NCBI GenBank assembly: GCA_947258515.1
Contig: CAMYIO010000033.1
Location: 609-64,608 of the forward strand
Length of the DNA stretch: 64,000 nt
Reading direction: 5' to 3'
From: an uncultured Ectothiorhodospiraceae bacterium
GTDB taxonomy: Bacteria > Pseudomonadota > Gammaproteobacteria > UBA9214
Shown here: piece by piece, positions 4,321-60,287 of the stretch
Layout: each line of letters opens with the position of its first letter
Position numbering within the stretch: position 1 is the stretch's first letter
Position numbers and translations under genes: made by a program
The notes under the pieces: generated by a model
Told to the model about the DNA's origin: nothing
Databases searched by the model: none
What the model saw: the letters and a program-made list of their open reading frames with translations, nothing else

Positions 4321-4590
4321 CTTGCAGGTTTCCTCTGGCAGGTGGATTGTAGCTCGACCGGTGCCAAAGCGACGGCACACAACAAGCGCAGTCCGTTTAT
4401 ATTACCAGAATCCAGCTGCAAAACCTCTTCCTCTGCAATCGCCATGGAAGCACAAAATCTTGATGAAACCTGTTGGCTCGCATCTGGTCTGAATTCATGA
4501 CAACAGTTACAGTAAAGCGAGAACAGAAAAGATAACGAAACGGCTTTATGGGCAATGGATTCATACGCGCGCAAGCACTGCGAGGTGAGC

Positions 4591-4982
4591 ATGACAAATC
4601 TGGGGCATGTGGTATTTTATGTTCGTGACCTTGAACGCTCCGTGAAATTCTACACCAATGCGGTTGGACTAGGGCTCAGCGGTACCATCTTCAATGGCCG
4701 TGCGGCATTACTCAGTGGTGGCAGTACACACCACGAGTTACTGCTTATCCAGACAGGTGCCGCCGAGGGTCCCTTGCAGGGGAAGCGTATCGGCCTTTAC
4801 CACGTCGGCTGGAAAATCGGTGATTCACTCGAGGAATTAACCACACTATCAGTCAAAGTATTTATCTCAGAGACCCTGATGGCAATGAAATTGAATTGTA
4901 TGTCGACAATCCGGATTATGACTGGCGCAACGATGACAGCTGGATGGAGGCGCCTGTTAAACCATTGAAAACCAGCAACTGA
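4591..4982 (+). pseudogene. VOC/glyoxalase-family protein, apparently disrupted
   Basis: The N-terminus NLGHVVFYVRDLERSVKFY...HHELLL...HVGWKIGDSLEEL is a typical VOC fold. The conserved C-terminus YLSDPDGNEIELYVD...PVKPLKTSN lies in another frame ending at 4982, and about 17 aa between the two parts are missing. Confidence 0.5.
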
Positions 4983-5013
4983 CAGCTACGCCACTTGAGA
5001 GGTGAATATCGAC

Positions 5014-5205
5014 ATGAGCGGAGTAACCCCCTACATTACCCTTGAGCAAATTGCCGCACGCATGCAAGACATGAATACCTGTGAGGCAGTCAACGAGGCG
5101 CTGGATGAGGTAGAATACCTGTTTGAAGTCATACCGCCCGAGCTGCAAGACCCTGCCGAGACATTGATTGCCCAGCTCAGGGAGAAGCTGAAGAACCTGG
5201 AATAA
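5014..5205 (+). CDS. hypothetical small acidic protein
   Basis: 64-aa ORF with a GAGAGGTG Shine-Dalgarno 9 nt upstream of ATG 5014. No recognisable family. Confidence 0.4.
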   Translation: MSGVTPYITLEQIAARMQDMNTCEAVNEALDEVEYLFEVIPPELQDPAETLIAQLREKLKNLE

Positions 5206-5338
5206 TCCGGACTCCATGCACTGCATGAAACAAGCCGGACCGCCCGGGCAGTGTTAATCAGCAGCTAACCATTGCAAGCCTGCCATCAGGGGCCTATTGT
5301 GTCGCGGCATCCCGACCGGCAAAACAATACAGGACAAC

Positions 5339-6102
5339 ATGAACGAGAAAACAGAAACCCGCAACATGGCACTGTTCTGCGACTTCGAGAACGTCGCGCT
5401 GGGCGTGCGCGATGCCAATTACTCGGCCTTCAACATACAGAAGGTACTGGAACGCCTGCTGCTCAAGGGCAGTATCGTCGTCAAGAAGGCCTACTGCGAC
5501 TGGGACCGCTACAAGGAATTCAAGAAAACCATGCAAACTCTGCCGACATTCGCATGGTCGTTGACGCGCTGGACCTCTGTTATACCAAGTCGCATGTCGA
5601 CACCTTCGTGATCATCAGCGGCGACTCGGATTTTTCGCCCCTGGTCAGCAAACTGCGCGAGAATGACAAGGTGGTCATCGGTGTTGGCGTGAAGAGCTCC
5701 ACATCTGACCTGCTGATTGCAAACTGCGACGATTTTATCTTCTACGACGACCTGGTACGCGAGTCGGAGAAGCCGCGCCGCGCCCGGCGCAAGCCCGTGG
5801 CCAAAAAGGCAGGCAAGAAAGACAATACAAAGATCGAGGATGACAAGCAGCAGGAAGCACTGGACCTGGTCGTTGAAACGGTAGAGGCGTTGCTCAAGGA
5901 GCGCGGAGAACAGGAAAAGGTCTGGGGCTCGATGGTCAAGCAGACCCTGAAACGACGCAAGCCGGGTTTCAACGAGACCTACCACGGTTTCCGCACTTTT
6001 GGACAACTGCTGGAAGAAGCGCAGGCGCGTAAAATGCTGACATTGCAGCTGGACGAGAAATCGGGCGGCTACATCATCAAGGAACTCAACCGCGACGACT
6101 AG
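5339..6102 (+). pseudogene. NYN-domain (LabA-like) RNA-binding protein with C-terminal OST-HTH/LOTUS domain, disrupted
   Basis: The N-terminus MALFCDFENVALGV...KKAYCDWDRYKEFKK is in the 5297 frame. The rest, NSADIRMVVDALDLCYTKSHVDTFVIISGDSDFSPLV...GFRTFGQLLEEA, is in the 5272 frame. About 20 aa of the NYN core are missing at the junction near 5530. Confidence 0.55.
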
Positions 6103-6277
6103 CCGTTACCGAACACGGCGGATTCACCCGGCATAAACTGTTGACTTGCGTGGCGGGCAAGTCGCAGTCTTGCCCGCCCCTTGAGTTACCACCGCCATGC
6201 TGCGAAAATAATGAAGCTGTGCACAGGAACAATCAACGCATGTGGCAGTCAACAGTAAAATAAAGTGAGGTTTAGCT

Positions 6278-22302: not shown

Positions 22303-22375
22303 GTAGGAGCGCCGTCCCCGGCGCGATTGTTCTTTGTCTTGCCCCCGAATCGCGGCGAGGACGCCGCTCCTACAA
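22303..22375. repeat. REP-like palindromic element (type A, copy 1)
   Basis: tgtaggagcgccgtccccggcgcgattg -spacer- aatcgcggcgaggacgccgctcctaca, an imperfect inverted repeat. Near-identical copies lie at 34870, 41423 and 62526. Confidence 0.6.
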
Positions 22376-22407: not shown

Positions 22408-23521
22408 TCAGAACCATATTGAAACGAAAAGCTGCGCCACGTCGGCACCGAATTTGTACAGCGGTTCATCTCCCGCCGGTGCGCCGCTGTCGCGCAGATC
22501 GCGAAAATCATGGTAGTTGAACCAGATGTGATCATAGGACAGGTTAATACTGCCACGGTCTATCCAGCGCCAGCCATTCTGTACGAAATCATAACTCAAC
22601 GAAAACCCGAGCGTGTTGCTGTCAAAAGAGCTGAGTTCCTTGTCGCGCGCGAGAAAGTTCTGTGCATCCCTGCGCGGGAACAGGTCACTGTAAAAGTCGG
22701 CTGAATTCTGCGTGTAATAGCGGTAGTGAGCTTCAAATAACCAGCCACCGCTCAGCGGGTGTATGTAGGCAAGCTTGACGTTATGCGCCCGGATTCCCCA
22801 GGTGTCATCAAAGATCCGGTACTCTGCATAGGTTGATGCACGATAAGGTAAATAATAAAGTCCGCGCACGGCAACTGCGTTGCTGGTGCGTGTATTCGGG
22901 TAGACCTCCGGCTGATAACTGTAACCCGGAGAACTCGCAGTATCGATGTAACGCACCGAACGGTAGGGATTATTCAAATATGCTGATCACCTGCGTGAGC
23001 CCGACTGTATAATTCTGCCGGTCCACATCTTCGGAGAAGGCAGGGTCGTTATTGTTGCCAACGACATCCCAGCCACGTGCATATCCCAGTGTCACGGTGG
23101 TCATGTTGCCAAACATGTCCATGCTGATACCAAAACTGGCGGTATTGGCCGAGTAATCACTCTCCTCACTGTTGGTATAGGAGACACTCATAATCGAATT
23201 GCCATGCAGGTAGTCTGCACCCAGCGAGTATTCAGTTCGCTCTTCCGTGTAGGGACTGGCCGTGGTGACGACATCAATGGATGCGCTGCTGATGGAATCC
23301 ACGTAGTAGTTACCGCTGAGCGCAAAATTCTGCCCGACGTTTTTCAGAACCAGCACCGATGGCCCGGTGATCTCGACCCCGCCGCCATCATAGGAGTGAT
23401 ACAGCGCATCGGCACGGTCATCCGGCAACACGCCGGCCACGGTCGGCAAGCCGCTGCACAGCAGGCACAGACCCGCGAGACAGGTTTTGCGGATACTAGT
23501 TACAGCCACAGCCCCCACCAT
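22408..23521 (-). pseudogene. DUF3570-like outer-membrane protein, split by a frameshift near 22970
   Basis: Two abutting 189-aa ORFs. The N-terminal half carries the signal peptide (LAGLCLLCSGLPTVAG). The C-terminal half ends ...FVSIWF, the terminal-Phe signature of outer-membrane barrels. Together they make ~378 aa, typical of DUF3570. It sits next to the DUF4266/TlpA partners. Confidence 0.5.
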
Positions 23522-23732
23522 TACCACCTTCAGCACCACGCGCCGCCTCGCGTGCCTGGTAGACGTGAATCATGTAGGAGGATGACACCGGGTTGCGTTC
23601 GAAACGCATGATTTCATCCGCAAGGTATTCACGCTCATAGGGCTTTACCCAGGGTTCGACCATACTGCAAGCCGGCAGGTACAACACACCCAGAACGAGA
23701 ATAACTGCTTTGCGGATAGTCACTGCCGTCAT
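23496..23732 (-). CDS. DUF4266-like small lipoprotein
   Basis: 78 aa, lipobox LPAC, C-terminal Gly-rich ...GGNGGGCGCN tail. Conserved neighbour of DUF3570 and TlpA genes. Confidence 0.55.
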   Translation of the reverse strand: MTAVTIRKAVILVLGVLYLPACSMVEPWVKPYEREYLADEIMRFERNPVSSSYMIHVYQAREAARGAEGGNGGGCGCN

Positions 23733-24241
23733 TCCCTGATCAGGTCACGAACCTGTTGCTGGTAGACAGTCTCAAGTCCGGGTTTATAGCCCTTGTGCAG
23801 GTAGCGCATATTGCCATCGCGATCCACCAGCACGGTGCTGGGCATGGCAACCACGTCATATTGCTTGCTGACGACGCTGTCGCTGTCAAATACCACGGGA
23901 AAACTCACCGGCAGTTCCTCCAGCAGTTTTTTCGCCTTGCTCGAATCAGCCTCGACGTTGACACCCAGCACGGTGAATCCCAGTGCACGGTACTTGTCAT
24001 GCAGTTCGCTGAGTACCGGCATCTCCTGGCGGCAGGGGCCGCACCACGAGGCCCAGAAATTGATCAGCACAACCTCGCCGCGGTATTCACTGAGCCTGAG
24101 ATTTTCACCCGTGTTGCTCTTCAGCGTAAAGTCCGGTGCACCCGACTGCTTCATGCCGGCATATACAGCGGATGTCGCCATGATCACCGCAGCGGCCATG
24201 CCGAGCCATGATTTCATGTAATGTGCTAACTTGTTTTCCAT
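23729..24241 (-). CDS. TlpA-family periplasmic thiol:disulfide oxidoreductase
   Basis: Signal peptide and thioredoxin fold with WASWCGPC active site. Stop/start overlap with the downstream lipoprotein gene. Confidence 0.8.
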   Translation of the reverse strand: MENKLAHYMKSWLGMAAAVIMATSAVYAGMKQSGAPDFTLKSNTGENLRLSEYRGEVVLINFWASWCGPCRQEMPVLSELHDKYRALGFTVLGVNVEADSSKAKKLLEELPVSFPVVFDSDSVVSKQYDVVAMPSTVLVDRDGNMRYLHKGYKPGLETVYQQQVRDLIRE

Positions 24242-24253
24242 AATCGACTCCTG

Positions 24254-24922
24254 TTAAAAGAAGAAACTGATACCGGCGGTACCTTCCAGGTTATGTGTTG
24301 TTTTATCCTTTCCGAGCAGGTCGGATTTGAAAATGTGGTCGCGGAAGTCTAGATGCAGCGCAACCCAGTCATTCACCAGGAACCGGTAGCCGGCGCCGAC
24401 GTTGACAGTGAAATGGCTGTCATCCGCAAACTCTGTATTTCCAACGCCGGCGATCAGGTACAGGGCACTGTTAAAGGCGTGACCCTTGCCGATAAATGCC
24501 TCACCCGGCAGGATGTTGTACCCCAGCGAGAGATTGTAGTAAGTCAGTTTCCGCTGACTGTCCGTCAGCACCCGGGCACCACCACTGAGCGTCTCGTAAC
24601 TGGTGTCGCCTGCCTTTGTCCGGCCGATAGCGGCCTCGGTAAAGAAGTCCTCGGTAATGTGGTAGGCGCCGCGCGCTCCATAGACCACGTTAGTGCCGAA
24701 GTCCTCGATACTCATGACACCGACAAAAGCACCGACCTCGAAGTCCTCACTGTCGATATCAGCTTCGGAAACCGTGCGTCTTTCAAGGTCCGGGCTTATC
24801 ACCGGCGTCGTGTCATCCTGTGGTGCATCATCAACCCGCACCCAGGAGCAACCCGGCAGCAGGCTCATGAAGGCCAGTGCAAGCATTGACCTCAGAAGAA
24901 AAATGCGAAACCTGCTTTCCAT
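24254..24922 (-). CDS. outer-membrane beta-barrel lipoprotein (OmpA/OmpW-like barrel)
   Basis: Lipobox LLPGCSW, amphipathic beta strands, C-terminal ...GISFFF. Confidence 0.6.
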   Translation of the reverse strand: MESRFRIFLLRSMLALAFMSLLPGCSWVRVDDAPQDDTTPVISPDLERRTVSEADIDSEDFEVGAFVGVMSIEDFGTNVVYGARGAYHITEDFFTEAAIGRTKAGDTSYETLSGGARVLTDSQRKLTYYNLSLGYNILPGEAFIGKGHAFNSALYLIAGVGNTEFADDSHFTVNVGAGYRFLVNDWVALHLDFRDHIFKSDLLGKDKTTHNLEGTAGISFFF

Positions 24923-25665
24923 TCGTTTATCTCCTGGTTGTCGTCCTTATCCTGAAAAATGACGCTGTTCCTGTATTCGGCACGCAGCAAGAATCGACGC
25001 GTCAGATAGCAGCGGATACCCACGCCGACACTGCCGATCTGCTCGGTACGATCCAGCTCATCGACCAGCGTAACGTTCGGGTCGGTATAGATAATCCCTG
25101 TCCCCAGAGAAAAGAAAGGCGACAGACGCCACTCCGGAAACGGATGCGCGAGCAGACTGACGCGACCAACAACCGAATCCGAATAATTCCCGAACACCTG
25201 TGATACAGACAATTCTGCAGAGAAATTCGCCGTCATGGCATATCCTGCATAAGCCGTGATCATATCCGCACCTTCAAAGTCTCCGGCCAGCACCCCGGCT
25301 TCCCAGCGTCTTTTCGAGAAATCCCCGATATTTGCCTCCGCGAAGCGGGTCTGGTCACCCGCGGGGGTTAACGTCTGTTCCATTTCCGCACGCCTGACCC
25401 AGCCTTCCTTGCCTTTCCCGGTACGTACCCTGAACCAGTCGGTACGCCGCTTCAGTACGCTAATGGTCTCGCCACGATCAACCACGTGGAATACCGGGTA
25501 ACCGCGGCCGGGGCCGGTATGCATTTCCAGGTATGGCGCAGCAACAACAACCTCGACCAGTTGTTCTTCAGAAAATGCCTGTCTGGCCAGCAGGGCCTGC
25601 AACAGCAGTACAATCACGAGCACGCGTAACTGCGAAAATCCCCGGGCAACAGTGCACGCGTGCAT
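24892..25665 (-). CDS. SH3-domain + outer-membrane beta-barrel protein
   Basis: Signal peptide, a bacterial SH3-like segment (YPVFHVVDRGETISVLKRRTDWFRVRTGKGKEGWV), then a barrel ending ...GFAFFF. Confidence 0.55.
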   Translation of the reverse strand: MHACTVARGFSQLRVLVIVLLLQALLARQAFSEEQLVEVVVAAPYLEMHTGPGRGYPVFHVVDRGETISVLKRRTDWFRVRTGKGKEGWVRRAEMEQTLTPAGDQTRFAEANIGDFSKRRWEAGVLAGDFEGADMITAYAGYAMTANFSAELSVSQVFGNYSDSVVGRVSLLAHPFPEWRLSPFFSLGTGIIYTDPNVTLVDELDRTEQIGSVGVGIRCYLTRRFLLRAEYRNSVIFQDKDDNQEINEWKAGFAFFF

Positions 25666-25675
25666 ACAGTCGCTA

Positions 25676-28252
25676 TCAGTTACCGGGTACTGCGAATGGA
25701 TCGTTGTAATACTGCGCACCGATATCCAGCCATTCCGAGACAAGTCTCAGTTCGGCTGCATCAAGACGATTCTCGTGACTGCCTCCACTGTTGAACAGAT
25801 CAAAAAAACGCCAGCTTGCACGTGCACCGGCGCTCGACATGGCAGGCGCAACCGGTACACGCACCTCGGTCGGCAATCCCGTCTCGGGATCGATCGGACC
25901 GGGTACCAGGATGTCCTGCAGGCCGTTATCACCGAGTTCCTCGGCGAAGTCAGCGAACAGTAGCTCCCGATAGGAGTGGAAATGCGCGGCCTGTTCTGCG
26001 GACACACCATCGGTCAGATCGAGCTGTGCATCCGGTACCCTGTCCATGTCGGCTGCATCGAGGCTGGCATGGCATTCTGTGCAGGTGTTTACGCCACGGT
26101 CACGATTCCACAGGGGGTGTATATGCTGCTCATAATTGATCACTGTCCTGCATTGACTGTCCCAGTCCCCCTGGCAGACGGATGAGGCCGGTGCAGCGGT
26201 TGACAGGTCCGCATACAGCAGGCTGGTTGACGCATCCTTGAGGCGAGCGGCAGCCATTTCGTCGGTCCAGAGGTCGTGATATATCAGGTCAGTCGAGGGT
26301 TGCAGGGAGAGGACATCAAACCGCGCCAGGGTTTCCGCCATGGTTTCTCCGTATATCGCGGGCAAGGCAGGGTCTGTATTCGGGAATTCCATAGCGGTTG
26401 CCGGGGCACCGGCATGCACAGACTGCGCCCCCTGCGGGTGACCGTGGGGGCTGCCACCGGCATGATTATGGCAACCGTTACAGTGGACTGTTTCCCCGGC
26501 ACGCACTTGCAACCAGTTCTGGTGACGGTCGCCGATGCGCCGTCCGTCCCTGTCCACCACGCTGATGGCCAGTGGCACATCGGCCGGTACCTTGACCCGC
26601 ACGGACCCGTCCGGCTGTACCGGTGTGTAGCCGATGATCTCGCGCATCAGTTGCTGGCTACTGCGTCCAAAGGCAGTAAACGGCAGTGTGGCCACGTCGT
26701 TGTCTGGCATGGCGACGGCCTTGACGATGCGCAGGAAACGGGCAGGGCGATCAGCGGCCAGGGACTCTTTCGGGTCGGCGAGCGTGGCGATATCCGGTGC
26801 CGCGGTATCCACACCGTCGATGTCATAGACACTGCGGATATTGAGTATGCCGACACCCTCGTCAATCCACTGCAGGTCCAGCTCGATACCGGGCTGCTTG
26901 TCGAAAATGATGGATGGCAGGGCGCGTGGGGCGGTTGCCACCACATTGGTATAGGTAATGCCTTCCTGCGGGACAACCACCGGTAACTGAGTATCGGTAG
27001 ACATGTCATAGAGAAATATTCCGTACAGTGGATCGGCCTCGAGTGCATCAGGACTTTCAATCCGGCCGGCGGTGCAGGGGACAATCACGGTATCCTCCAG
27101 CAAACGGCATTCGCTCCAGCTGACCAGTACACGATCCGTACCATCCAGCAGCGGCCAGGCGCTACGGAAACGGCCACCGGGAGAGACACTGTTGTCTGTA
27201 CGGACATCATTGATCAGCAGAGCGGACTGCGCCGGTCCGGACAGTATCCCCTGGTTGTCCATTGTAGGTTCGGTGTTATCGATATAGTTTTCGATATCCA
27301 GTGAAATCAGCTCGCCGCCACGGTAGGACCCTGTAAATGGCAGCAGCAGGGCGAGCAGCCGGCCATTTTCCAATTCCCGCGGTTGCAGGAAATGCACATC
27401 AGCGTTATTGGTGCCGGTGTCATGGCTATGGGAACCGTACAGAAGCTGCAAGCCGGTCCCGTCCGGATACATCTTGTAGAGGCTTATGGCATTACGACTA
27501 CCCATGTCATCCCAGCGGCTGAAAACCACTTCTCCGGAAGAAAGCACCATCGGATCAAGATCGTGGCTCTGGTTAAACGAGACCTGCCTGATATCACTAC
27601 CGTCTGCATTCATGACATGTAACACCATGGCATGTTCGTTGAGGTTTTCATCCAGCGCGGTAAATTGTGGTTTGCCTTCGTCCAGCAGCACGGCACGCGA
27701 TGTTCTTTGACGTGACGAGGAGAATATTATGCGGCCATCCGGCAGGTAGTGTGGCGCCACATCCTGCCCGGCGGCAGCGGTAATGTCCGACGGGATGACG
27801 CGCTGCAGCTCATCGGCCTCAATCAGGTATTCCCAGATATCCCACTTCGGCTGGTCAGCCGGGGCGAGGCCGGGTATCTCGGGCGCACGCATGGCGAAGA
27901 GCAGCCGCTCGCCGTCATAGGACACTTCAACATCCTTCACATCACCCAGGCCACCGGTGAAGGATGCGGTTACATTGCGTTGCCGTGCACCCGGAGAAGC
28001 CAGATCACGGTAAAACAGGTCACCACCGGCATTGAACGTTAATGCCTCGCGAATATCCGGCTGCGTCAACACATTATTCATATCAACGATCAGAGGACGA
28101 CGCACAAAGGCAATACCGAAATCCTCGACCAGTGGATCAGGGTCCTGACCATCACCCCCGCCACATGCCTGCAATGCAACAGACAACACGCAGGCAACGC
28201 ACATGGCTGCAATCTTCCTGACGCCCTGAAAACACGCGTTGATTAGAGTCAT
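25676..28252 (-). CDS. lipoprotein with PD40/TolB-like beta-propeller repeats and two c-type heme motifs
   Basis: Lipobox LQAC. Propeller-like repeats (DGSDIRQVSF..., LYKMYPDGTGLQ...) plus HCNGCH and CTECH CXXCH motifs. The ORF opens at a TTG (28342), but an internal ATG gives a proper lipoprotein signal. Confidence 0.6.
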   Translation of the reverse strand: MTLINACFQGVRKIAAMCVACVLSVALQACGGGDGQDPDPLVEDFGIAFVRRPLIVDMNNVLTQPDIREALTFNAGGDLFYRDLASPGARQRNVTASFTGGLGDVKDVEVSYDGERLLFAMRAPEIPGLAPADQPKWDIWEYLIEADELQRVIPSDITAAAGQDVAPHYLPDGRIIFSSSRQRTSRAVLLDEGKPQFTALDENLNEHAMVLHVMNADGSDIRQVSFNQSHDLDPMVLSSGEVVFSRWDDMGSRNAISLYKMYPDGTGLQLLYGSHSHDTGTNNADVHFLQPRELENGRLLALLLPFTGSYRGGELISLDIENYIDNTEPTMDNQGILSGPAQSALLINDVRTDNSVSPGGRFRSAWPLLDGTDRVLVSWSECRLLEDTVIVPCTAGRIESPDALEADPLYGIFLYDMSTDTQLPVVVPQEGITYTNVVATAPRALPSIIFDKQPGIELDLQWIDEGVGILNIRSVYDIDGVDTAAPDIATLADPKESLAADRPARFLRIVKAVAMPDNDVATLPFTAFGRSSQQLMREIIGYTPVQPDGSVRVKVPADVPLAISVVDRDGRRIGDRHQNWLQVRAGETVHCNGCHNHAGGSPHGHPQGAQSVHAGAPATAMEFPNTDPALPAIYGETMAETLARFDVLSLQPSTDLIYHDLWTDEMAAARLKDASTSLLYADLSTAAPASSVCQGDWDSQCRTVINYEQHIHPLWNRDRGVNTCTECHASLDAADMDRVPDAQLDLTDGVSAEQAAHFHSYRELLFADFAEELGDNGLQDILVPGPIDPETGLPTEVRVPVAPAMSSAGARASWRFFDLFNSGGSHENRLDAAELRLVSEWLDIGAQYYNDPFAVPGN

Positions 28253-28510
28253 AGTAGATCCTGATGCACATATATAAGTACGCACATCCGACGTCGTTTT
28301 CCTTTGGTGATCCCTGCATCCGTAATCACACACAAAAATCAATGTGATTCAGTTCCCGCCTGTTACATAACCCGTGTCGCAGTTGAACTATAGGACAGTC
28401 GAGGAATCCTGTTCCGCGAACAGAATCACAGAAAGCCACGCCTACAAACATCAGGATTGTCAGCCACGGAGATAACGACAATTAAAAACCAATGATTGCA
28501 GGAAGTGATT

Positions 28511-34869: not shown

Positions 34870-34939
34870 ATGTAGGAGCGCCGTCCCCGGCGCGATTGTT
34901 TTTTCATGATTCGAATCGCGGCGAGGACGCCGCTCCTAC
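34870..34939. repeat. REP-like palindromic element (type A, copy 2)
   Basis: tgtaggagcgccgtccccggcgcgattg ... aatcgcggcgaggacgccgctcctaca, the same element as at 22303. Confidence 0.6.
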
Positions 34940-35638: not shown

Positions 35639-37515
35639 GCAGCATGCCGGTTTTCACCTGCTCACGGCTGTTGCTGCTGTGTCTGATCGTGATCACACCC
35701 TCACTTGACGCAGCGGATGCACCGCCGTCAGCGGTCAAGGACCTGCAATACGGCGAGGTTCTCTACCATTATTTCCAGCAGGACTACTTCAACAGCATCG
35801 TGCGCCTGCAGATTGCAAGGCAGCAGCAACGCCTGCCAAACCACGCGGCAGAGGCCGAACTGATGCTGGGTGGTCTCGACCTGTCCTATGGCCTCAGGGA
35901 CGAGGCCAACCACATTTTTCAACGCCTGCTCAGCGAGGAGACCAGCGATGTCAGCACGCGCAACCGTGCCTGGTTCTATCTTGCGAAGATCTCCTGGCAG
36001 CGCGGTGATATAAACGCGGCACTGCAGGCCATAGAACGTGTGCAGGGAACGATGACAGCCGCAACCCGCACAGCCACAGTCAACCTGCACAGCCTGCTGT
36101 TGCTGCAACAGGGTAACAACCAGGCGGCCATTAAGCTGTTGCAGGATGCACGCAGCGGCAAACGCTGGTCACCGTTCCTGAACTACAACCTCGGTATTGC
36201 CCTGATCCGGGAACAGCAACAGCAGCTGGGCGCGAAACAACTTGATCATATCGGTGATATCAATGGCCGCAACGAGGAGCTGCGCCTGCTGCGTGACAAG
36301 GCCAACCTGGCACTCGGCTACAGTTACCTGCAAGACGGCAATCCGGAAATGGCCCGCAAGACACTGGAGCGTGTACGTCTCGAAGGCCCGCTGTCGAACA
36401 GGGCATTGCTCGGCACCGGCTGGGCAGATACCGAAAGTGAAAACTATGCAGCGGCACTGGTGCCGTGGCTGGAGTTGAGCAGCCGTGACAGCACCGATCC
36501 GGCGGTACAGGAATCATTGCTGGCCATTCCCTATGCCATGACAAAGATGAACCTGCATGGACGCGCTGTAGAGCATTACAATGATGGCATCAGGCAGTTG
36601 ATCGAGGAACGACAGAAACTGGATCAATCCATCAGCGCCATCCACCAGGGCAGACTGCTGGATCTGCTGCAACAACACAACCTCGGCGCCGGCAACGGCT
36701 GGATGCAACAACTGCACCTCGACTCCGAGGCACCTGCGCTGCGCTACCAGCTCGCACTGATGTCATCGCACGACTTTCAGGAAGCTGTGAAGAATTACCG
36801 TGATCTCCTTGTATTACAAGTTAATCTATCCAGCTGGGAGAGCGCTATCGCCGCCTACGACGATATGCTCGCCGGCCGCCAGGCACGCTTTGAGACACAC
36901 CGCCCCGCAGCACAACAGGTACTGCAGGGCACGCGCCTGCAGCAACTGCAACAGCGCCGTGCCGCACTGGCCGAGAATCTTGCCCGCATCGGCATAATGG
37001 ACGATGCCGCCGCACTGGCGACCCCGGAAGAGGCCCGGCAGTGGCATCAACTGGCAACCATCGCTGAGCGACTGGCGCAGCTACCGGATAATCCCGATAC
37101 CGCGACATTGCACGACAAGCAGCAGCGCCTGCGTGGCCTGCTCATCTGGCAATTTCAGGAAGACTACAAACCACGCCTGTGGCAAGCCAGGAGGCAACTC
37201 GCCGAACTGGACACCCTGCTCAACGAGTCACAGCACGGCATCGACAGCCTGCAGCAGGCCAAAATCGATGCCCCGTCCGGTTTTGGCGATTTCAAACGGC
37301 GTATCGCCGCTAACAAGTCAACCATCGAGAAACTGTCAGCACAGACGGATACCACCCTGCTTGCACAAGGCAAGCAACTGGAGCATCTCGCCATCAATGA
37401 ACTGGAGCGTCAACAACAGCGTGTCGATGCCTATATCATCCAGGCACGTTTCGCGCTTGCGCAAACCTATGACAACGCCCTGCAGCAACCGGCAGTGGAG
37501 GGGAGCGTACAGTGA
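35629..37515 (+). CDS. periplasmic TPR + coiled-coil protein
   Basis: Signal peptide, N-terminal TPRs and a long C-terminal coiled-coil. Overlaps the next gene's start. Confidence 0.6.
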   Translation: MGISSMPVFTCSRLLLLCLIVITPSLDAADAPPSAVKDLQYGEVLYHYFQQDYFNSIVRLQIARQQQRLPNHAAEAELMLGGLDLSYGLRDEANHIFQRLLSEETSDVSTRNRAWFYLAKISWQRGDINAALQAIERVQGTMTAATRTATVNLHSLLLLQQGNNQAAIKLLQDARSGKRWSPFLNYNLGIALIREQQQQLGAKQLDHIGDINGRNEELRLLRDKANLALGYSYLQDGNPEMARKTLERVRLEGPLSNRALLGTGWADTESENYAAALVPWLELSSRDSTDPAVQESLLAIPYAMTKMNLHGRAVEHYNDGIRQLIEERQKLDQSISAIHQGRLLDLLQQHNLGAGNGWMQQLHLDSEAPALRYQLALMSSHDFQEAVKNYRDLLVLQVNLSSWESAIAAYDDMLAGRQARFETHRPAAQQVLQGTRLQQLQQRRAALAENLARIGIMDDAAALATPEEARQWHQLATIAERLAQLPDNPDTATLHDKQQRLRGLLIWQFQEDYKPRLWQARRQLAELDTLLNESQHGIDSLQQAKIDAPSGFGDFKRRIAANKSTIEKLSAQTDTTLLAQGKQLEHLAINELERQQQRVDAYIIQARFALAQTYDNALQQPAVEGSVQ

Positions 37516-38276
37516 AGCCCGTACTGCCTGTCATGGTGATGATGGCCGCCCTGTCAAGCGCCTGCTCAGTGCTGCACGGGGACAATGAGCCTACCATCGC
37601 GAGCCTCGGCAAACGCCCGGTAAAACTCGAGGACACACCGGTGTCAGCCAGTGAAGTGCAGGCGATCTCGGCCTACCGGTCCTTTCTTGACAGCGGTGAT
37701 GAATCGGATTCACGCCCGCACGCGATGCGCCGCATTGCCGACCTGAACCTGGAAAAAGAGGAACTGCCGCAAGCCGGGCAGACTACCCCGGACACCCCGT
37801 CGCTGCAGCCAATAGAGGCGCGCGAATCCATCGAACTGTACCAGAGCGTACTGTCACTCTATCCACAGCGCGCGGACAACGACTCGGTGCTCTATCAACT
37901 CGCACGCGCCTACGAGATGGATGGCCAGCCGCGACAATCGCTCGACACGCTGGCAACCCTCGTACAACACTACCCGCAGAGTCAATATGTGCTGGAAGCA
38001 CAGTTCAGGCGTGGCGAGATCCTGTTCGAGCAACGCGACTACGATAACGCAGAGCAGGCCTACCGCGCCGTGGTCAGCAGTGGCCCGGATAATTCGTTCT
38101 ACCGGCAATCGCTATACAAGAGCGGCTGGTGTTTTTTCAAGCTGTCAGAGCTGGATGAATCACTGGATGCCTTCATGGCACTCCTCGATCTGGAGCTGCA
38201 GGATACCGAAGCGGGTATTGCGCAACTCGATCAGCTGAGCCGTCCGCGGCGCGAACTGGCGCGAACTGGTGGATGA
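37512..38276 (+). CDS. TPR lipoprotein, 5' fragment of a split ~935-aa TPR gene (GltD/AgmU-like)
   Basis: Lipobox LSSACS. The frame ends 8 nt after the tandem 10-bp duplication gcgcgaactg/gcgcgaactg at 38249-38268. Removing one copy fuses it in frame to the next ORF. Confidence 0.6.
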   Translation: MKPVLPVMVMMAALSSACSVLHGDNEPTIASLGKRPVKLEDTPVSASEVQAISAYRSFLDSGDESDSRPHAMRRIADLNLEKEELPQAGQTTPDTPSLQPIEARESIELYQSVLSLYPQRADNDSVLYQLARAYEMDGQPRQSLDTLATLVQHYPQSQYVLEAQFRRGEILFEQRDYDNAEQAYRAVVSSGPDNSFYRQSLYKSGWCFFKLSELDESLDAFMALLDLELQDTEAGIAQLDQLSRPRRELARTGG

Positions 38277-40320
38277 CACCCTGCGCGTGGTCAGTCTGGG
38301 TTTCTCCTATGGGCAGGGTGCCGATGGCGTGTCCGAGTATTTCAAGCGACGCGGCACACGCCATTACGAATACATCATCTACGACAACCTTGGCCTGCTG
38401 TACCTGCAGAAGGAACGTTATAACGACGCCGCACAAACCTTCCAGGCGTTTGTGACACAAAACCCCATACATCGCCTGGCGCCCGGCTTCCAGATGCGCG
38501 TTATCGAGACCTATCAGCAAGGCAACTTCCCGACACTGGTACTGGAAAGCAAGGAGGCACTGGTCGATCAGTACAACCTGCAGAGTGAGTACTGGCAGCA
38601 TTACTCGCCAGAGGACAACCCGCAGGTACTGGATTACCTGAAGCTGGCCATGACTGACCTGTCCCGTCACTACCATGCACTGGCGCAGAAGGACAAGAAG
38701 CCGCAGGACTACCAGCAGGCCGCACACTGGTACCGGCGCTACCTGGGTTCATTCAGGGAGGATGCGGACGCGCCGCAGATGAATTTCCTGCTGGCCGAAC
38801 TGTTATTTGAATCCGGTGACTACCAGCAGGCCGCACTGGAATACGAAATTACCGCCTACGACTACGCCCCTCACGAGAACGCAGCAGCTGCCGGTTATGC
38901 GGCGGTACTCGCCTATGACAAACAGGAAGAGCGCCTGACAGGCAGCGCACAACAGGCGTGGCACCGGCAGTCTATCGAGTATGCCATCCGCTTTGCCAGC
39001 ACCTTCCCCCGGCATCCGCAGGCCATGGCTGTCCTTACCCGCAGCAGCGAACAGCTGCTGGCCAGCGGTGACCAGGAACGGGCAATACAGGTTGCGCAGT
39101 CAGTCATTGCCAGCGAGCAGGCCAGTGCCGTCCAGCAACGGGTTGCCTGGACGGTACAGGCACATGCCTACTTCGAGCAGGGAGATTTCCTGCAGGCTGA
39201 GGCCGCCTACCAGCAGGTACGCCAGCGCATGCCACGGGATAACAAGGAGTATGACAATATAAATGAGCGACTTGCCGCATCTATCTATAAACAGGGAGAA
39301 GCTGCGCAGGCGGCCGGTGAAACCGCCGACGCCGTCGCCCATTTCCGGCGGGTGCGTGAAGCCACACCCACGGCCTCCATCGTGGCCACCGCCGAATTCG
39401 ATGCGGCTGCCGGATTATTGTCACTACAACAATGGTCACAGGCTGCCGCCATGCTGGACCGTTTCCGCAACAGCTACCCGAATGATCCACGCCAGGACGA
39501 GGTAACGCGACGCCTCGCCACGGCTTACCTGGCCGAGGAGCAACCGCTGCAGGCCGCCCGCGAGTTCGAACGCATCGGCACCAGCCATGAGGACCCGACA
39601 TTGCGGCGTGAGGCACTCTGGCAAGCAGCGGAACTGTATACCGCGGCCGGCCAGCCGAACGAGTCCGTCGTGGCATACCAGCGCTACATCCAGCAATTTC
39701 CGCAACCCGTTGAACCAGCCGTCGAGGCACGGCAACGGATCGCTACACATTACGCGGCCAGCAACAACCTGGCGGAACAGCAGCGCTGGTTGAAGGACAT
39801 CATCAGGGCGGACCGGCAGGCGGGCAAGCAACGCAGTGACCGCACCCGCTATCTTGCCGCGCGCGCACAACTGACGCTTGCTGATAATGCCCATGAAAAC
39901 TACCGTCGCGCAAGACTGGTCCTGCCATTGAAGAAAAGCCTCGCTGTCAAGAAGCGCCTGATGCAATCGGCCATGCAGCAATACGAACAGGCCGCCGCTT
40001 ACCAGGTCGCCGAAGTCACCACGGCGGCCACCTTTCAAACGGCGCAGATCTATACGGAACTGGGCGTCGCCTTGCTGCAATCACAGCGACCGGCGAACCT
40101 GAGCGGCGAGCCCCTGGAGCAATACAACATTCTGCTGGAAGAACAGGCCTATCCGTTTGAAGAGCAGGCCATCACGCTGCATGAGACCAATGTGCAACGC
40201 ATCGAGTCCGGTCTGTACAACGCCTGGATCGAAAAAAGCCTGCAACAACTCGCGCAACTGGTGCCGGCCCGGTATGCCAAACTGGAAAGAGGGGCGCCCT
40301 ATGTCACCGCACTTAAATAA
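38269..40320 (+). CDS. TPR protein, 3' fragment of the same split gene
   Basis: Continues the TPR array (RRELVDDTLRVVSLGF... after removing one repeat copy). It has no start codon or Shine-Dalgarno of its own. Confidence 0.6.
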   Translation: MDDTLRVVSLGFSYGQGADGVSEYFKRRGTRHYEYIIYDNLGLLYLQKERYNDAAQTFQAFVTQNPIHRLAPGFQMRVIETYQQGNFPTLVLESKEALVDQYNLQSEYWQHYSPEDNPQVLDYLKLAMTDLSRHYHALAQKDKKPQDYQQAAHWYRRYLGSFREDADAPQMNFLLAELLFESGDYQQAALEYEITAYDYAPHENAAAAGYAAVLAYDKQEERLTGSAQQAWHRQSIEYAIRFASTFPRHPQAMAVLTRSSEQLLASGDQERAIQVAQSVIASEQASAVQQRVAWTVQAHAYFEQGDFLQAEAAYQQVRQRMPRDNKEYDNINERLAASIYKQGEAAQAAGETADAVAHFRRVREATPTASIVATAEFDAAAGLLSLQQWSQAAAMLDRFRNSYPNDPRQDEVTRRLATAYLAEEQPLQAAREFERIGTSHEDPTLRREALWQAAELYTAAGQPNESVVAYQRYIQQFPQPVEPAVEARQRIATHYAASNNLAEQQRWLKDIIRADRQAGKQRSDRTRYLAARAQLTLADNAHENYRRARLVLPLKKSLAVKKRLMQSAMQQYEQAAAYQVAEVTTAATFQTAQIYTELGVALLQSQRPANLSGEPLEQYNILLEEQAYPFEEQAITLHETNVQRIESGLYNAWIEKSLQQLAQLVPARYAKLERGAPYVTALK

Positions 40321-41422: not shown

Positions 41423-41474
41423 CTGCAGGAGCGCCGTCCCCGGCGCGAATCGCGGCGAGACGCCGCTCCTGCAG
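41423..41474. repeat. REP-like palindromic element (type A, copy 3, no spacer)
   Basis: ctgcaggagcgccgtccccggcgcgaatcgcggcgagacgccgctcctgcag. Confidence 0.55.
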
Positions 41475-41572: not shown

Positions 41573-42198
41573 ATGGACGCTTACACCACCATTGTCGGAT
41601 TCTTCCAGTCCGGCGGCTTATTCATGTACCCGATAGTGCTGATGAGCGCTACATCTATCTCAGCATGGCCAGGACCAGCAATCACCGCATCTGGAAAAAA
41701 CTCCAGCCACTGTTGCAAAAGGGCGATTATCTGCAGGTTGCCATGGTCACCGAGAAGTCCCGTTCCGCCATCAGCCACATCTTCAGTTACGGTCTCAACC
41801 GCGCACGCACCTCGCGCCGCCGCGATGATGTCGAGATCGCCATGGAGGAGGGCCTGATGGAGACCGTACCCAACCTTGAAAAACGCACCCCCTACCTGGC
41901 CACCTTTGCCAATATCGCGACCCTGCTGGGGTTGCTGGGGACCATTATCGGCCTGATCCAGGCGTTTACCGCCGTTGCCGCCGCAAACCCTGCCGAGAAG
42001 GCCGACATGCTGTCCGCAAGTATCTCGGTCGCCATGAACACCACGGCCTTCGGCCTGATGGTCGCCATCCCGTTGCTGCTGATATACGCCGTGCTGCAGA
42101 CCAAGACCACGCAACTGGTCGACAGTCTCGAAATGGCCTCGGTGAAGTTCCTGAACCTGTTAACTGAACGGCCGCTCGGCGAGGCCAAGGCCGGATGA
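41573..42198 (+). pseudogene. exbB: MotA/TolQ/ExbB-family proton channel, frameshifted near 41665
   Basis: N-terminus MDAYTTIVGFFQSGGLFMYPIVLMSATSI in one frame. The remainder, ...RIWKKLQPLLQKGD...GLLGTIIGLIQAF...MVAIPLLLIYAVLQ, is in the 41665 frame. AGGAG Shine-Dalgarno before 41573. Confidence 0.6.
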
Positions 42199-44864: not shown

Positions 44865-45305
44865 ATGAATAATGAAAACAACAGTATTGTCTCGCAACTA
44901 CGGCGCAATGCGGTCGCGTTAATCAGTCTCGTGATCGCCGTCAGCAGCCTGAGTTACAATACCTGGCGTAATGAAAAAACAGAAGACAATCGTAACCAGC
45001 GTTTTGCTGCATTTGAAATTCTCCTGAAGCTGGGCGAGTTGCAGCAGGTTGTCTTCCATCATCACTACGACAAGGACAAGGCAGACAAAGGAAACCCCCG
45101 TACCGGCTGGAGCTACGTCCTGACAGTACGTGATTTATCCCGGGTATTGCACCCGCCATTACCCGACACAGCTGATAAATTGCTCACTGTATGGAGCGAA
45201 AACTGGGAAGGGCTGGACAAAAACATCACGAATGTTGACTCGATTTTGGCTGGCATAGACGAGATGCGTGGCGAAACACTGCAATTACTCGACTCGCTTG
45301 AATGA
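44865..45305 (+). CDS. hypothetical membrane-anchored protein
   Basis: One transmembrane helix (AVALISLVIAVSSL). Low GC, no recognisable family. Confidence 0.4.
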   Translation: MNNENNSIVSQLRRNAVALISLVIAVSSLSYNTWRNEKTEDNRNQRFAAFEILLKLGELQQVVFHHHYDKDKADKGNPRTGWSYVLTVRDLSRVLHPPLPDTADKLLTVWSENWEGLDKNITNVDSILAGIDEMRGETLQLLDSLE

Positions 45306-45377
45306 TATTCATGCACGAATATTCCGTTACACTGCGCGCCGATGCATTATGGCAGCTGCATACAAGGAGAGAATAGA

Positions 45378-45791
45378 ATGTTGAAACGCCCGTTTATAGC
45401 TGTCGTGGTAATTTTCATAGCCTGGTCGCTGCTCGATTTTGTGATCCATGGCCTGCTCTTGCAGGAGACATACGAAGCAACAGCCAGTCTGTGGCGTCCC
45501 ATGGAAGAGATGAACATGACGCTCATGTACATCGTCACGCTGGCATACACTGTCTGCTTCGTTGCGATTTATGATGTCTTCGTCAGTCAGAAATCTGTTT
45601 CAACCGGTATAAAATACGGCGCGCTGTTCGGTTTAGCGGCCGGCATATCAATGGGCTTCGGTTCCTACACGTTCATGCCAATACCCTGGTCTCTGGCATT
45701 AAGCTGGTTTACAGGAACACTGGTTGAATCAATCGTGGCAGGCGCACTGGCTGGTGCCATCATAAAACAGTCGGATAACCGACCCCTATGA
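45378..45791 (+). CDS. hypothetical integral membrane protein
   Basis: Three to four transmembrane helices. Start placed at the MLKRPF ATG. Confidence 0.45.
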   Translation: MLKRPFIAVVVIFIAWSLLDFVIHGLLLQETYEATASLWRPMEEMNMTLMYIVTLAYTVCFVAIYDVFVSQKSVSTGIKYGALFGLAAGISMGFGSYTFMPIPWSLALSWFTGTLVESIVAGALAGAIIKQSDNRPL

Positions 45792-46090
45792 ATCGTCGGC
45801 ATGGCAGGTCAATCATGCCCACACGATCTATCTGTGCCTTTCTGTTTGTATCACTGCCGTTTTCAATGACTGCCTGTGCCTGGATGCAGCAGCCCGATAA
45901 TCCTGAAGATACCGGCCTGAGCCTGCAAACAACAGAATTCGATGGCCTGGAACGCAGCTATTATTTGCATTTGCCACCCGACTATAACGCCGCTTCCAGG
46001 CTGCCTGTTGTGTTCGTGCTTCATGGCGGCGGCAAGGCAGACGGCGACGAGGTAGCCAGCAGAACGGGGGCGGATCACCGGGATGCCTGA
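45788..46090 (+). pseudogene. esterase/PHB-depolymerase-family protein, N-terminal remnant
   Basis: Lipoprotein signal plus ERSYYLHLPPDYNAASRLPVVFVLHGGGK. The frame stops after 100 aa, about one third of family length. Confidence 0.5.
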
Positions 46091-46199
46091 TACCCTGCAG
46101 GACAACACACCCCGATAAAATTACGTGAGGTTTATCGTTGGGTATGGCCGTGTATCCTGGTAATTCCAGTCAAACTGTATTAGTGACAAAGGCTTCATT

Positions 46200-46742
46200 G
46201 TGCGAAAAATGTCCGTCATCGTTGTTATTATTGCCAGCGTTCTGGGTTATGGATACTGGCATTCATTGACCCATGCTGCTTTTCATGTACAGCTGGATTT
46301 CAAGGATCATGACAATGGAACAGAGGAAATCCTTCCAAGGGTCGGGATTGATTTTCTGGACACGGAGGGACGTGTGTTAGCTCAGGGTGTAAGCGACGAA
46401 CACTATAACTATGTGCATCTGATACACCCGGAAGTCGGTGACTGCCGTCAGGCAGAAGAGTCCGCCCCATTTTCAGGCGAAGGCAGAAATGCCTGGCAGA
46501 CATGTTTTGAACACCTGTCTACCTGGATAGCCACCTGGGCCGGCAAGGTTAGCCGGGTAAACGTGAATACTGACCGTTGTACCCGGAGAAATCTCCCCGT
46601 GACCGTTTCAGAAAGTAATTCCGACTGGTTTCTCTGGTGGGTCCCTCACCCCCATATAGGTGGAAATCCGTACAAGTATTATAGTTTATCGATCACAGTC
46701 GATGAAAAAGATTGCGCCAACCAGGTAATGACGCCTGATTGA
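46200..46742 (+). CDS. hypothetical protein with N-terminal membrane anchor
   Basis: 180-aa ORF in a low-GC segment. No recognisable family. Confidence 0.4.
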   Translation: MRKMSVIVVIIASVLGYGYWHSLTHAAFHVQLDFKDHDNGTEEILPRVGIDFLDTEGRVLAQGVSDEHYNYVHLIHPEVGDCRQAEESAPFSGEGRNAWQTCFEHLSTWIATWAGKVSRVNVNTDRCTRRNLPVTVSESNSDWFLWWVPHPHIGGNPYKYYSLSITVDEKDCANQVMTPD

Positions 46743-46782
46743 TACATTCGAATGCAAGCAGGATTGGGCTATTTAAAAGAAC

Positions 46783-47019
46783 ATGGCAGATAAACTGCAT
46801 AATGCTGGCATCGCACTCGCGATTTTCCTGATTTCTTTGCCCCTCGCCATATTCGTCACGATCTTGTTACTACCATTATGGAAGTGGCTCGAATCAACGT
46901 TTAAAATCGAGTCCATTGGTCACTCGGGTCCGTCGGAGTGGTGTTATTGGACGAGCTACTTCATTATTGTGAGCTGTTTTTGTTTAATCTGGTGGAAAAA
47001 ACGACGCACCGGTACCTGA
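46783..47019 (+). CDS. hypothetical small membrane protein
   Basis: 78 aa with two hydrophobic helices. Weak call. Confidence 0.3.
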   Translation: MADKLHNAGIALAIFLISLPLAIFVTILLLPLWKWLESTFKIESIGHSGPSEWCYWTSYFIIVSCFCLIWWKKRRTGT

Positions 47020-47070
47020 TAGCGTCATTGATGGCATACTACGCAAACCCGATTCAGGGGACTGGTTAAC

Positions 47071-56932: not shown

Positions 56933-58191
56933 TCGACGGCAGCCGCACTCCGTACATCAAGACCCGCGGGAAACCCGGACCGTTTTCAGCTTCCGACCTG
57001 GCCGTTGCGGCCGGGCAACCGCTGCTCGCACGTCAACCCTTCGCGCCCGACGACCTCGATGAGGTCATTCTGGGTTGCGTAATGCCCAGTGAAAACGAGG
57101 CTAACATCGGTCGTGTCGCCGCACTGAGACTCGGCTGCGGTGAGCGGGTGCCTGCCTGGACCGTACAACGCAATTGCGCCTCGGGCATGCAATCCATCGA
57201 CTCGGCGGCACAGAATATCGCCAGCGGGCGGTCCAGCCTGGTACTCGCCGGTGGTGTTGAATCCATGAGTCGCGCACCGATCCTGTATAACGACACCATG
57301 GTGCACTGGTTCGCCGCCATGGCGGCTGCACGCACACTGCCTGAAAAACTCAAAATGCTTGGCCGCCTGCGTCCCGGCCATTTCAAACCGGTGATCGCCC
57401 TGCTCCATGGCCTCACCGATCCTGTCGTTGGACTCTCTATGGGGCAGACGGCAGAAATCCTGGCACACCGTTTTGGCATCAGCCGTGAAATGATGGACAG
57501 CTTTGCGGTACGCAGCCACACACGACTGACGAGCGCGCACGAGAACGGTTATCTCGATGAGATCGAAGCTCTGTATGATACCCGTGGCAATGTTTACGAC
57601 CATGATGACGGGGTTCGCCCGGATTCTTCCATCGAGAAACTGGCGAAGTTGCGCCCGGTATTCGACAAGCCGCTGGGTAACGTCACCGCCGGCAACAGCG
57701 CGCAGATTACCGATGGTGCCGCCTGGGTTATCCTTGCATCGGAGGACAGGGTGTCCCGCCACAACCTGCCGGTACTGGGTCAACTGATTGACAGCCAGTG
57801 GGCCGGCCTGGACCCCGCACAAATGGGACTGGGACCCTGCTATGCCATGGCACCCATCATGCAACGCCACGGACTGGACAGCGCTGATATCGACTTTATA
57901 GAAATCAACGAAGCCTTCGCAGCCCAGGTACGGGCCTGCCTCGCCGCCTGGAAAGACCCGGACTTCTGTCGCGATGAACTGGGCAGGGAGTCAGCCTTTA
58001 CGGCGATCGACGAGGACCGCCTGAATATCGATGGCGGTGCGGTCGCTATCGGTCACCCGGTGGGATCCAGCGGTGCACGCATCGTCTTGCATCTACTAAA
58101 GGTCCTGCAACGTAACAATGCAAAACGCGGCATGGCAAGCATCTGCATTGGCGGCGGCCAGGGTGGCGCTATGTTGATTGAAAGGGCTTGA
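56887..58191 (+). CDS. fadI: acetyl-CoA C-acyltransferase (FadI-type 3-ketoacyl-CoA thiolase)
   Basis: Thiolase catalytic motifs (NCASGMQS, ...GHPVGSSGARIV..., CIGGGQGGAML). ~434 aa like FadI. The true start may be internal, because the ORF overlaps fadE by 46 nt. Confidence 0.85.
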   Translation: MGERQSGWGGRPVYVVDGSRTPYIKTRGKPGPFSASDLAVAAGQPLLARQPFAPDDLDEVILGCVMPSENEANIGRVAALRLGCGERVPAWTVQRNCASGMQSIDSAAQNIASGRSSLVLAGGVESMSRAPILYNDTMVHWFAAMAAARTLPEKLKMLGRLRPGHFKPVIALLHGLTDPVVGLSMGQTAEILAHRFGISREMMDSFAVRSHTRLTSAHENGYLDEIEALYDTRGNVYDHDDGVRPDSSIEKLAKLRPVFDKPLGNVTAGNSAQITDGAAWVILASEDRVSRHNLPVLGQLIDSQWAGLDPAQMGLGPCYAMAPIMQRHGLDSADIDFIEINEAFAAQVRACLAAWKDPDFCRDELGRESAFTAIDEDRLNIDGGAVAIGHPVGSSGARIVLHLLKVLQRNNAKRGMASICIGGGQGGAMLIERA

Positions 58192-58195
58192 AATG

Positions 58196-58340
58196 AGTCG
58201 TGACCATAATGCAGGAGCAGATCGCGCTTGCGAAGCGCTCCTGCAAACGAGTCATGACCATATTGTAGGAGCGGACCGCGTCCGCGAAATATTCTGGACT
58301 GGAACAAATCGCGCTTGCGAAGCGATTCTGCAAACGAAGG
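58196..58340. repeat. REP-like palindromic element cluster (type B) in the fadI-fadJ spacer
   Basis: Three palindromes: gcaggagcagatcgcgcttgcgaagcgctcctgc, tgtaggagcggaccgcgtccgcgaa, and aatcgcgcttgcgaagcgatt. The unit is related to the one at 16481-16590. Confidence 0.5.
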
Positions 58341-58350
58341 GATACCACGA

Positions 58351-60287
58351 ATGACCGAGACTAACGCAACCACACATTTCCATTCAGAAACAGACGACGA
58401 CAATATCGTCTGGCTGCATTTTGACAAGGCGGATGCCGGCACCAATGTGCTTAATGTTGAAGTCCTTGAGCAACTCGATCAGCATCTGCAGCAGATCGCT
58501 GCCCAGGGTCCGCGGGGTCTTGTCATCCTCTCGGACAAGGCAAACGGATTTATCGCCGGGGCCGATATCACGGCCTTTACGCAGCTCAAGACCAGTGACC
58601 AGGCATTGGCTTTCCTGCGCAGCGGGCAGGACGTTTTCAACCGGCTTGAAGCACTGCCCTTCCCCACCGTTGCGTTGATCCACGGCTTTTGCCTGGGCGG
58701 TGGCACCGAACTGTCACTGGCCTGCCGCTATCGCGTCACGCGCGACGATCCGGGAACACGCATGGGCTTGCCGGAAGTGAAACTCGGCATTCATCCCGGC
58801 TGGGGTGGCAGGTTGTCCCCGAACGGCACCTGCGTGCGGCGGCGCGCAAACTGGTACTGGAATCACCGGCACCACATCAACCCGGGTGGCTTGACCGCCT
58901 ATCCAATAATGTTCTCGTCCGCCCGCTGCTTGCACGCGTGTTCGGCCAACAGGTCGCAAAACGAGCGCCCAGAAACCATTACCCGTCACCCTACGCGATG
59001 ATCGATATATGGCGCCAGCACGCCACGGACAAGCAGGGCATGCTCGATGCCGAAGCACAGTCTTTGGCGCAGCTGATTACCGGTGCGACTGCAAAAAACC
59101 TGGTGCGTGTCTTTTTCCTGCAGGAGCAACTCAAGTCGCTTGGCAAGGACAAAAGCTACCAGCCAAAGTATGTGCATGTCATCGGCGCCGGCACCATGGG
59201 TGGTGATATCGCTGCCTGGTGCGCCTTCCGTGGTTTTCATGTCTCCCTGCAGGACCAGACTCCGCAGCGCATTGCCCCGGCGATCAAGCGCGCCCACAGC
59301 CTGTTCAAGCGCAAACTGAAACGGCCTGTCAAGATCACCGAGGCCATGGACCGCCTGATGCCCGACCACAAGGGTATTGGTGTCGAGCGTGCCGATATTA
59401 TAATTGAGGCAATTTTTGAAGATGCGGACGTAAAGCGTTCTTTATACAAGACTATTGAACCCAGAATGAAACCGGATGCCGTGCTTGCGACCAATACCTC
59501 CAGCATCCCGCTGGAAGAACTGTGCACGGCCCTGTCCCGTCCCGAACGACTGGTCGGCCTGCACTTTTTCAACCCGGTCGCGATGATGCAACTGGTGGAA
59601 GTCGTCACAGGTGAGTCCACCTCGGCGGAGGTGGCCGCACACGCCATGACCTTCACCCGGCAGATTGACCGCTTGCCCCTGCCCGTCACCAGTACGCCCG
59701 GCTTCCTCGTTAATCGCATCCTCATGCCCTACCTGATGGAAGCCGTGCTGCTCGAAGCCGAAGGTATCCCTCCGGCCGTTATCGACAAGGCCGCCACGAC
59801 GTTCGGTATGCCCATGGGGCCGGTGCAACTGGCCGACACCGTGGGGCTGGACATCTGCCTGCATGTCGCCGAGATACTTGCCGAACACTTCACTGCTGAA
59901 ATCCCGGACAGCCTCAGGAAACGGGTTGCTGACGGCAACCTTGGACGCAAATCCGGGCGTGGATTTTATAACTACAAGAAGGGTAAACCGGTGAAAACAA
60001 GAACCGGGGCTGGCAACTGGAACATGGAAGAGATCAGCAACCGTCTGATAGACCGCCTGCTGAATGAGTCCGTCAGCTGTTTACGCGAGCACGTGGTGGA
60101 GAATAATGATCTGCTGGATGCCGGCATGATTTTCGGCACCGGCTTTGCACCCTTTCGCGGCGGCCCCATGCAGCACATTGATGCTGTCGGGGCTGAAACC
60201 GTGTACAAACAGTTACAGACTCTGAAGGCATTACGCGGCGAACGTTTTACCCCGGATGATGGTTGGAATATCCTGATGCAATCCTAG
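58351..60287 (+). pseudogene. fadJ: fatty-acid oxidation complex alpha subunit FadJ (enoyl-CoA hydratase + 3-hydroxyacyl-CoA dehydrogenase), internally disrupted
   Basis: The hydratase domain (HGFCLGGGTELSLACRYRV...LGIHPGWGG) is in the 58315 frame. The remainder (RHLRAAARKLVLE... VIGAGTMGGDIA ... dehydrogenase) is in the 58689 frame. About 16 aa (TxRLPRLxG...) are missing at ~58810-58840. Confidence 0.7.

Follow-up and report, generated by a model that had tools for sequence, protein, structure and literature searches.

Private gene-breaking lesions in a metagenome-assembled contig of an uncultured gammaproteobacterium: assembly drop-outs as a probable cause

The stretch of DNA analyzed here (the window) consists of 64,000 nucleotides (nt) of contig CAMYIO010000033.1 (positions 609 to 64,608, forward strand) from GenBank assembly GCA_947258515.1, a metagenome-assembled genome (MAG) of an uncultured gammaproteobacterium. 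It holds ≈58 genes of at least 100 amino acids (aa), which together make up ≈90% of the sequence. Eight of these genes are disrupted. One is an esterase remnant, and the other seven, which code for a glyoxalase/VOC protein, an NYN-domain protein, a DUF3570 protein, a TPR protein, ExbB, a FadJ-type enzyme and TatD, each carry a frame-breaking lesion that is private to the window (≈1 per 9 kb). The lesions were called by DNA alignment with intact orthologous loci from relatives that are 83–98% identical to the window, and three-frame translation showed a switch of frame and missing conserved residues at each site claimed in a preliminary description of the sequence. All of the relatives are MAGs or metagenomic contigs, and several carry the label of a sediment metagenome; among them are JBATFE01, JBATKV01, CALOCX01, CAVWDM01, several ENA assemblies and JGI Ga0316197/8. 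The gene order of the window is fully conserved with all relatives that were compared.

Five of the seven lesions are deletions of 28–106 nt, none of a length divisible by three, that split a gene into two frames. The glyoxalase/VOC gene (4555–4979, plus strand) lacks 55 nt between positions 4839 and 4840; this block is present in two relatives that are 97–98% identical (L015 and L016), where the intact gene codes for 148/160 aa. In the NYN gene (5339–6102, plus strand), which has thousands of homologues at E ≤ 1e-90, 52 nt are missing between 5535 and 5536, and six relatives (L010–L015, L017) retain both the block and a 271-aa protein. The DUF3570 gene (22408–23539, minus strand) has lost 47 nt between 22980 and 22981 relative to the intact 392-aa gene of L018, L019 and L097 (95–96% identical). 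The exbB gene (41573–42198, plus strand), which heads an exbB-exbD-exbD-tonB cluster, lacks 28 nt between 41643 and 41644 that are present in L003–L006. The longest of the five losses, 106 nt between 58810 and 58811, affects the gene for a FadJ-type enoyl-CoA hydratase/3-hydroxyacyl-CoA dehydrogenase (58351–60287, plus strand) within an otherwise intact fad operon; the block is present in L007, L008 and L009, and homologues of the protein are 680–686 aa long. The preliminary description had already listed these five genes as split between two frames with a block of residues missing, and alignment with the intact relatives bore this out. The sites it gave were right, with coordinates that were off by 5–25 nt and with sizes of 30–60 nt that needed correction.

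The two remaining private lesions are of other kinds. The TPR gene (37512–40320, plus strand), which would code for 932 aa if repaired, is split by a 10-nt tandem duplication at 38249–38268. The duplication, which the preliminary description had also listed, is real and is absent from five relatives (L002–L006); intact 932-aa proteins are found in relatives (P0365 and P0368). At the end of the tatD gene (62585–63231, minus strand), alignment with L007 showed a loss of ≈160 nt at 62584/62585. The gene’s final 44 codons and its stop codon are gone, together with one arm of a hairpin resembling a repetitive extragenic palindromic (REP) element; the preliminary description had listed tatD as truncated at a REP. 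The match to the Pfam TatD_DNase profile is limited to profile positions 1–213 of 253. Each broken gene carries exactly one lesion, and the halves on either side are otherwise open.

A census of insertions and deletions was made over the spans that could be aligned: 3.4–15.2 kb against L015 (96.7% identical), 21.1–33.5 kb against L018 and L019 (95–96%), 28.3–45 kb against L002–L006, and 48.2–62.6 kb against L003, L004, L006, L007 and L009. In these spans, all other window-specific insertions and deletions were intergenic or in frame. Wherever the window could be aligned to a relative, it was free of nonsense mutations or premature stops, of 1–2-nt coding insertions or deletions and of insertion sequence (IS) elements. 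The spectrum of the window is confined to the 28–160-nt deletions, the 10-nt duplication and a single ≈727-nt loss, in the esterase. In ≈100 kb of aligned short-read relatives there was no frame-breaking lesion except for one deletion in the glyoxalase gene of L017, and the enrichment of such lesions in the window, seven in 64 kb, is real. Small inversions or mismatch clusters as a cause were ruled out, since no mismatch clusters suggesting small inversions were present in coding sequence.

Two technical signatures were considered and rejected. Ordinary Nanopore noise has a different appearance: L006 (CAVOZZ01, MFD09779.bin.2.146), a Nanopore MAG, has ≈20 private 1-nt insertions or deletions in the 13 kb aligned with window positions 28.3–41.4 kb. 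Such errors are typical of long reads left uncorrected and would break up the genes of that MAG; the window has none of them. Regular spacing, as expected from polishing windows or chunks, was not seen either; the distances between successive lesions, worked out by hand from the junction coordinates, are 750, 17495, 15301, 3389, 17234 and 3909 nt and have no common period. Runs of fragmented DUF1538 and CNNM genes occur in Nanopore contigs of two other relatives (L010, 18316–19764, and L009, 19963–21691), and are probably frameshift noise or pseudogenes of those assemblies.

The junctions themselves are plain. Compared with the closest intact relative, microhomology at the six deletion end points is 2, 0, 0, 0, 1 and 1 nt (2 nt in the glyoxalase gene, 0 nt in the NYN and DUF3570 genes and 1 nt in fadJ), which is about the level expected by chance. 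The lost blocks consist of ordinary, unique coding sequence with 43–64% G+C, and there are no direct repeats at their ends in the sequences of the relatives. Only around the 10-nt duplication does the sequence (ggcgcgaact ggcgcgaact gg) allow for slippage. Relocation of the missing blocks within the window was rejected, as blastn and tblastn searches of the window gave only chance matches and REP copies. We also considered whether the junctions could be joins between sequences from different strains, and rejected this because the divergence profile has no switch at the junctions, including that in the DUF3570 gene.

Exact-sequence look-ups of the frameshifted products (glyoxalase, 125 aa; NYN, 90 aa; DUF3570, 189 aa; TPR, 254 and 683 aa; ExbB, 177 aa; FadJ, 216 aa; TatD, 337 aa) located all of them on one NCBI contig (72,588 bp) and in no other record; the esterase, treated below, is the exception. 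The lesions therefore belong to the deposited record and were not made when the window was cut; an origin in the building of the window or in the stripping of Ns was rejected because the products of the NCBI contig read across the junctions. Every relative that was checked has intact genes, including those that are 95–98% identical, and none of the seven lesions is common to independent assemblies. The TPR protein (932 aa), TatD (260 aa) and ExbB are all intact on a 169,113-bp contig from a close relative. When ExbB was repaired in silico, the resulting 217-aa protein matched exactly on two other contigs, the longer of which is the 169,113-bp contig, and the repaired 260-aa TatD matched exactly on a Logan contig of 1,544 bp (P0460). 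The glyoxalase gene is also broken in other assemblies, independently and in different ways. In L017 (JGI 3300028598, Ga0265306_10116164; positions 1–330, equivalent to window 4565–4860), ≈356 nt have been lost with 3 nt of microhomology, while an 852-nt ENA contig (P0423) carries a frameshift after the residues ‘GWK’. This gene may be dispensable in the clade.

The esterase remnant (45788–46118, plus strand; open reading frame 45788–46090) differs from the seven private lesions in its distribution. Its first ≈84 residues are fused out of frame to the last 15 codons at ≈46069/46070, with an internal loss of ≈727 nt relative to full-length relatives of 318–350 aa, so that its listing as a truncated esterase in the preliminary description was sound. 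The remnant weakly matches feruloyl and polyhydroxybutyrate-depolymerase-family esterases, in their N-terminal part. The same 91-aa frameshifted product, with an identical out-of-frame tail, is present on the independent 169,113-bp contig. The lesion is therefore inherited and real, and by this sequence comparison we regard the esterase as a genuine deletion pseudogene. It lies within a ≈2-kb segment of lower G+C content (44960–47030, ≈50%) that is absent from L003, L004 and L006 and contains small membrane proteins and proteins of unknown function in addition to the remnant; the proteins of this segment are present in closer relatives, such as that with the 169-kb contig.

Relaxed selection was seen neither in the broken genes nor on the window’s own branch. 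In the two halves of each broken gene, the pairwise ratio of non-synonymous to synonymous substitution rates (dN/dS) was 0.01–0.30, indistinguishable from that of intact neighbors. Changes on the window’s branch were polarized with L015 and L013. Outside the NYN region, this branch carries nine synonymous and six non-synonymous changes in ≈1100 codons, a divergence of ≈0.45%; so short a branch with such a ratio indicates that purifying selection is still acting. The NYN region (≈5207–6270) stands apart, with dS from the closest relative of 0.24–0.52 compared to 0.03–0.08 in its neighbors. Its dN/dS of 0.05–0.07 shows that it, too, is still under purifying selection, and it includes a 28-nt insert (5207–5234) that was found only in the window. 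To judge from its divergence, this block looks to have been imported by homologous recombination from a lineage further removed, and neither of its ends matches the position of a lesion.

Several other features of the window were noted. REP-like palindromes of the tgtaggagcg...cgctcctgca type occur at 58186–58333, ≈22305–22374, 34874–34894, 41424–41447 and 62529–62584. The first of these, 148 nt long, is a double-copy insertion that separates the thiolase gene from fadJ; in L007 and L009 the gap between the two genes is only ≈5 nt. A conserved cluster at 23496–33819 comprises genes for DUF4266, DUF3570 and thioredoxin-like proteins and for two outer-membrane β-barrel or SH3 proteins. Also encoded there are a protein of 858 aa, which has a hydrazine-synthase-alpha-like domain (PF18582), and one of 830 aa with a LamG domain, which one source assigns to the mono/diheme cytochrome c family.

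We consider it probable, though by a limited degree of confidence, that the six deletions and the 10-nt duplication are not biological, and are instead medium-scale assembly or consensus errors in one MAG contig. Such errors have been reported for most long-read assemblies (PMC8442456). The window resembles these cases in that its insertions and deletions measure from tens of bases to ≈160 bp, are confined to one assembly and lie in sequence that is clean at the single-base level, but it differs in their high density. A contig of 72.6 kb, where the near-identical strain is otherwise represented by short-read contigs of ≈1 kb, suggests a long-read backbone. In such a backbone, tens to ≈160 bases would have been dropped at some points, or a few bases doubled. 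Polishers take out single-base errors but cannot restore missing blocks, and a later polishing step would have corrected the former and left the latter as they were. Both the technical origin and the type of pipeline are inferred here from the assembled sequences. A technical origin is favored because the lesions are private, number one per gene, show normal dN/dS, have an odd spectrum and have microhomology at chance level, and because the repaired ExbB and TatD are identical to proteins of other assemblies. It is further favored because ≈12% of the genes would otherwise have been inactivated along a branch with 0.45% divergence on which point mutations are still purged, and because strongly conserved genes are among those hit, such as the NYN gene, exbB at the head of its operon and fadJ in the fad operon; random lesions at such a rate throughout a genome would presumably be lethal. 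Several observations weigh against this explanation. Near-identical short-read contigs (99.7–100%) were found in ENA ERZ27251222 and JGI 3300032273, and the window is 100% identical to one independent contig of 1,013 nt and 99.7–99.8% identical to two others; with this accuracy at the base level, the contig is no sloppy assembly. None of the near-identical contigs found in the genome and metagenome look-ups (L001, L095, L096) reaches a junction. The lineage does retain real deletion pseudogenes, as in the esterase, and since the glyoxalase gene is differently broken in two other assemblies, the lesion in the window’s copy could be genuine.

Some of the same observations lend weight to a possible, although clearly less likely, explanation, in which the deletions would be real, very recent and private to the strain. 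They would stem from a burst of double-strand-break repair by end joining (of the Ku/LigD type or an alternative kind) in a population that was clonal or had passed through a bottleneck, perhaps following a long dormant phase in the sediment, and selection would not yet have had time to act on them. Deletions left by end-joining repair span tens to hundreds of bases and lack microhomology, and fill-in duplications also result. The 0–2 nt of microhomology at the deletions fits such repair scars, and the 10-nt tandem duplication could be a fill-in of staggered ends; the base accuracy of the rest of the contig, the esterase pseudogene and the independent breakage of the glyoxalase gene elsewhere would also be accommodated. 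In its fullest form, which we consider rather doubtful, all seven lesions would be scars of error-prone end joining that accrued in one free-living sediment clone, for example while it was dormant for long and not growing, with both selection and recombination repair inactive, and the clone would later have become abundant enough to assemble. However, the broken genes show no secondary decay, none of the seven junctions occurs in any independent assembly, and the arguments from the short, still purging branch, from the conservation of the genes hit and from the likely lethality of striking essential genes at such a density apply here. We know of no natural genome with end-joining scars in ≈12% of its genes.

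Two further explanations fare worse. Long-running erosion of the genome of a host-restricted or symbiotic lineage, which the preliminary description had proposed as ongoing, would account for the disruption of eight of ≈58 genes and for the one disruption, that of the esterase, that is common to a relative. According to a large mycobacterial survey, the pseudogenes of the M. tuberculosis complex arise through frameshifts, disruptions of the IS type and internal stop codons alike (PMC9676053). The lesions in the window have no such mixed spectrum. Recently host-restricted genomes show IS expansion, rearrangements, nonsense mutations and 1–2-nt frameshifts. The window shares with the young pseudogenes of Shigella, Yersinia pestis and Sodalis that many genes are hit, each by a single disabling lesion, while close relatives are intact, but unlike in them its lesions are limited to deletions of 28–160 nt and a single 10-nt duplication; IS elements, nonsense mutations and small frameshifts are missing, gene order is perfectly conserved and selection is not relaxed. 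The preliminary description had proposed a comparison of dN/dS between broken and intact genes, which revealed no difference and lends erosion no support. The intact genes of relatives that are 95–98% identical, and the recurrence of near-identical strains in assemblies of sediment metagenomes from both ENA and JGI, two different data sources, also speak against it, and we consider erosion very unlikely. Less credible still is a repeat-mediated origin, whether by collapse of short repeats during assembly or by real slipped-strand deletion between direct repeats. The slippable context of the 10-nt duplication is the only point in its favor; for the deletions, it is contradicted by the anatomy of the junctions, since the 0–2 nt of microhomology, the lack of direct repeats flanking any of the lost blocks and the uniqueness of the blocks, with no copies elsewhere in the window, exclude both forms. 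The suggestion of a systematic assembly collapse in the preliminary description thus stands as far as a technical origin is favored, but not as a collapse, given that the lost blocks are not repeats.

If the lesions were real, they would show that an environmental bacterium had undergone an unusual burst of deletions of the end-joining type, with a spectrum unlike that of ordinary pseudogene formation. If, as we favor, they are assembly or consensus errors, a public MAG contig that looks perfect at the level of single bases can have its genes broken by errors of tens to ≈160 bases at a rate of about one in 9 kb. Several flags for such errors would be available without access to reads, namely a lesion that is private to one assembly, a single lesion per gene, normal dN/dS, a lack of microhomology, and an exact match when the repaired protein is looked up. 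Errors of this kind would inflate the number of pseudogenes and could mimic genome erosion, which calls for caution with pseudogene counts in MAGs.

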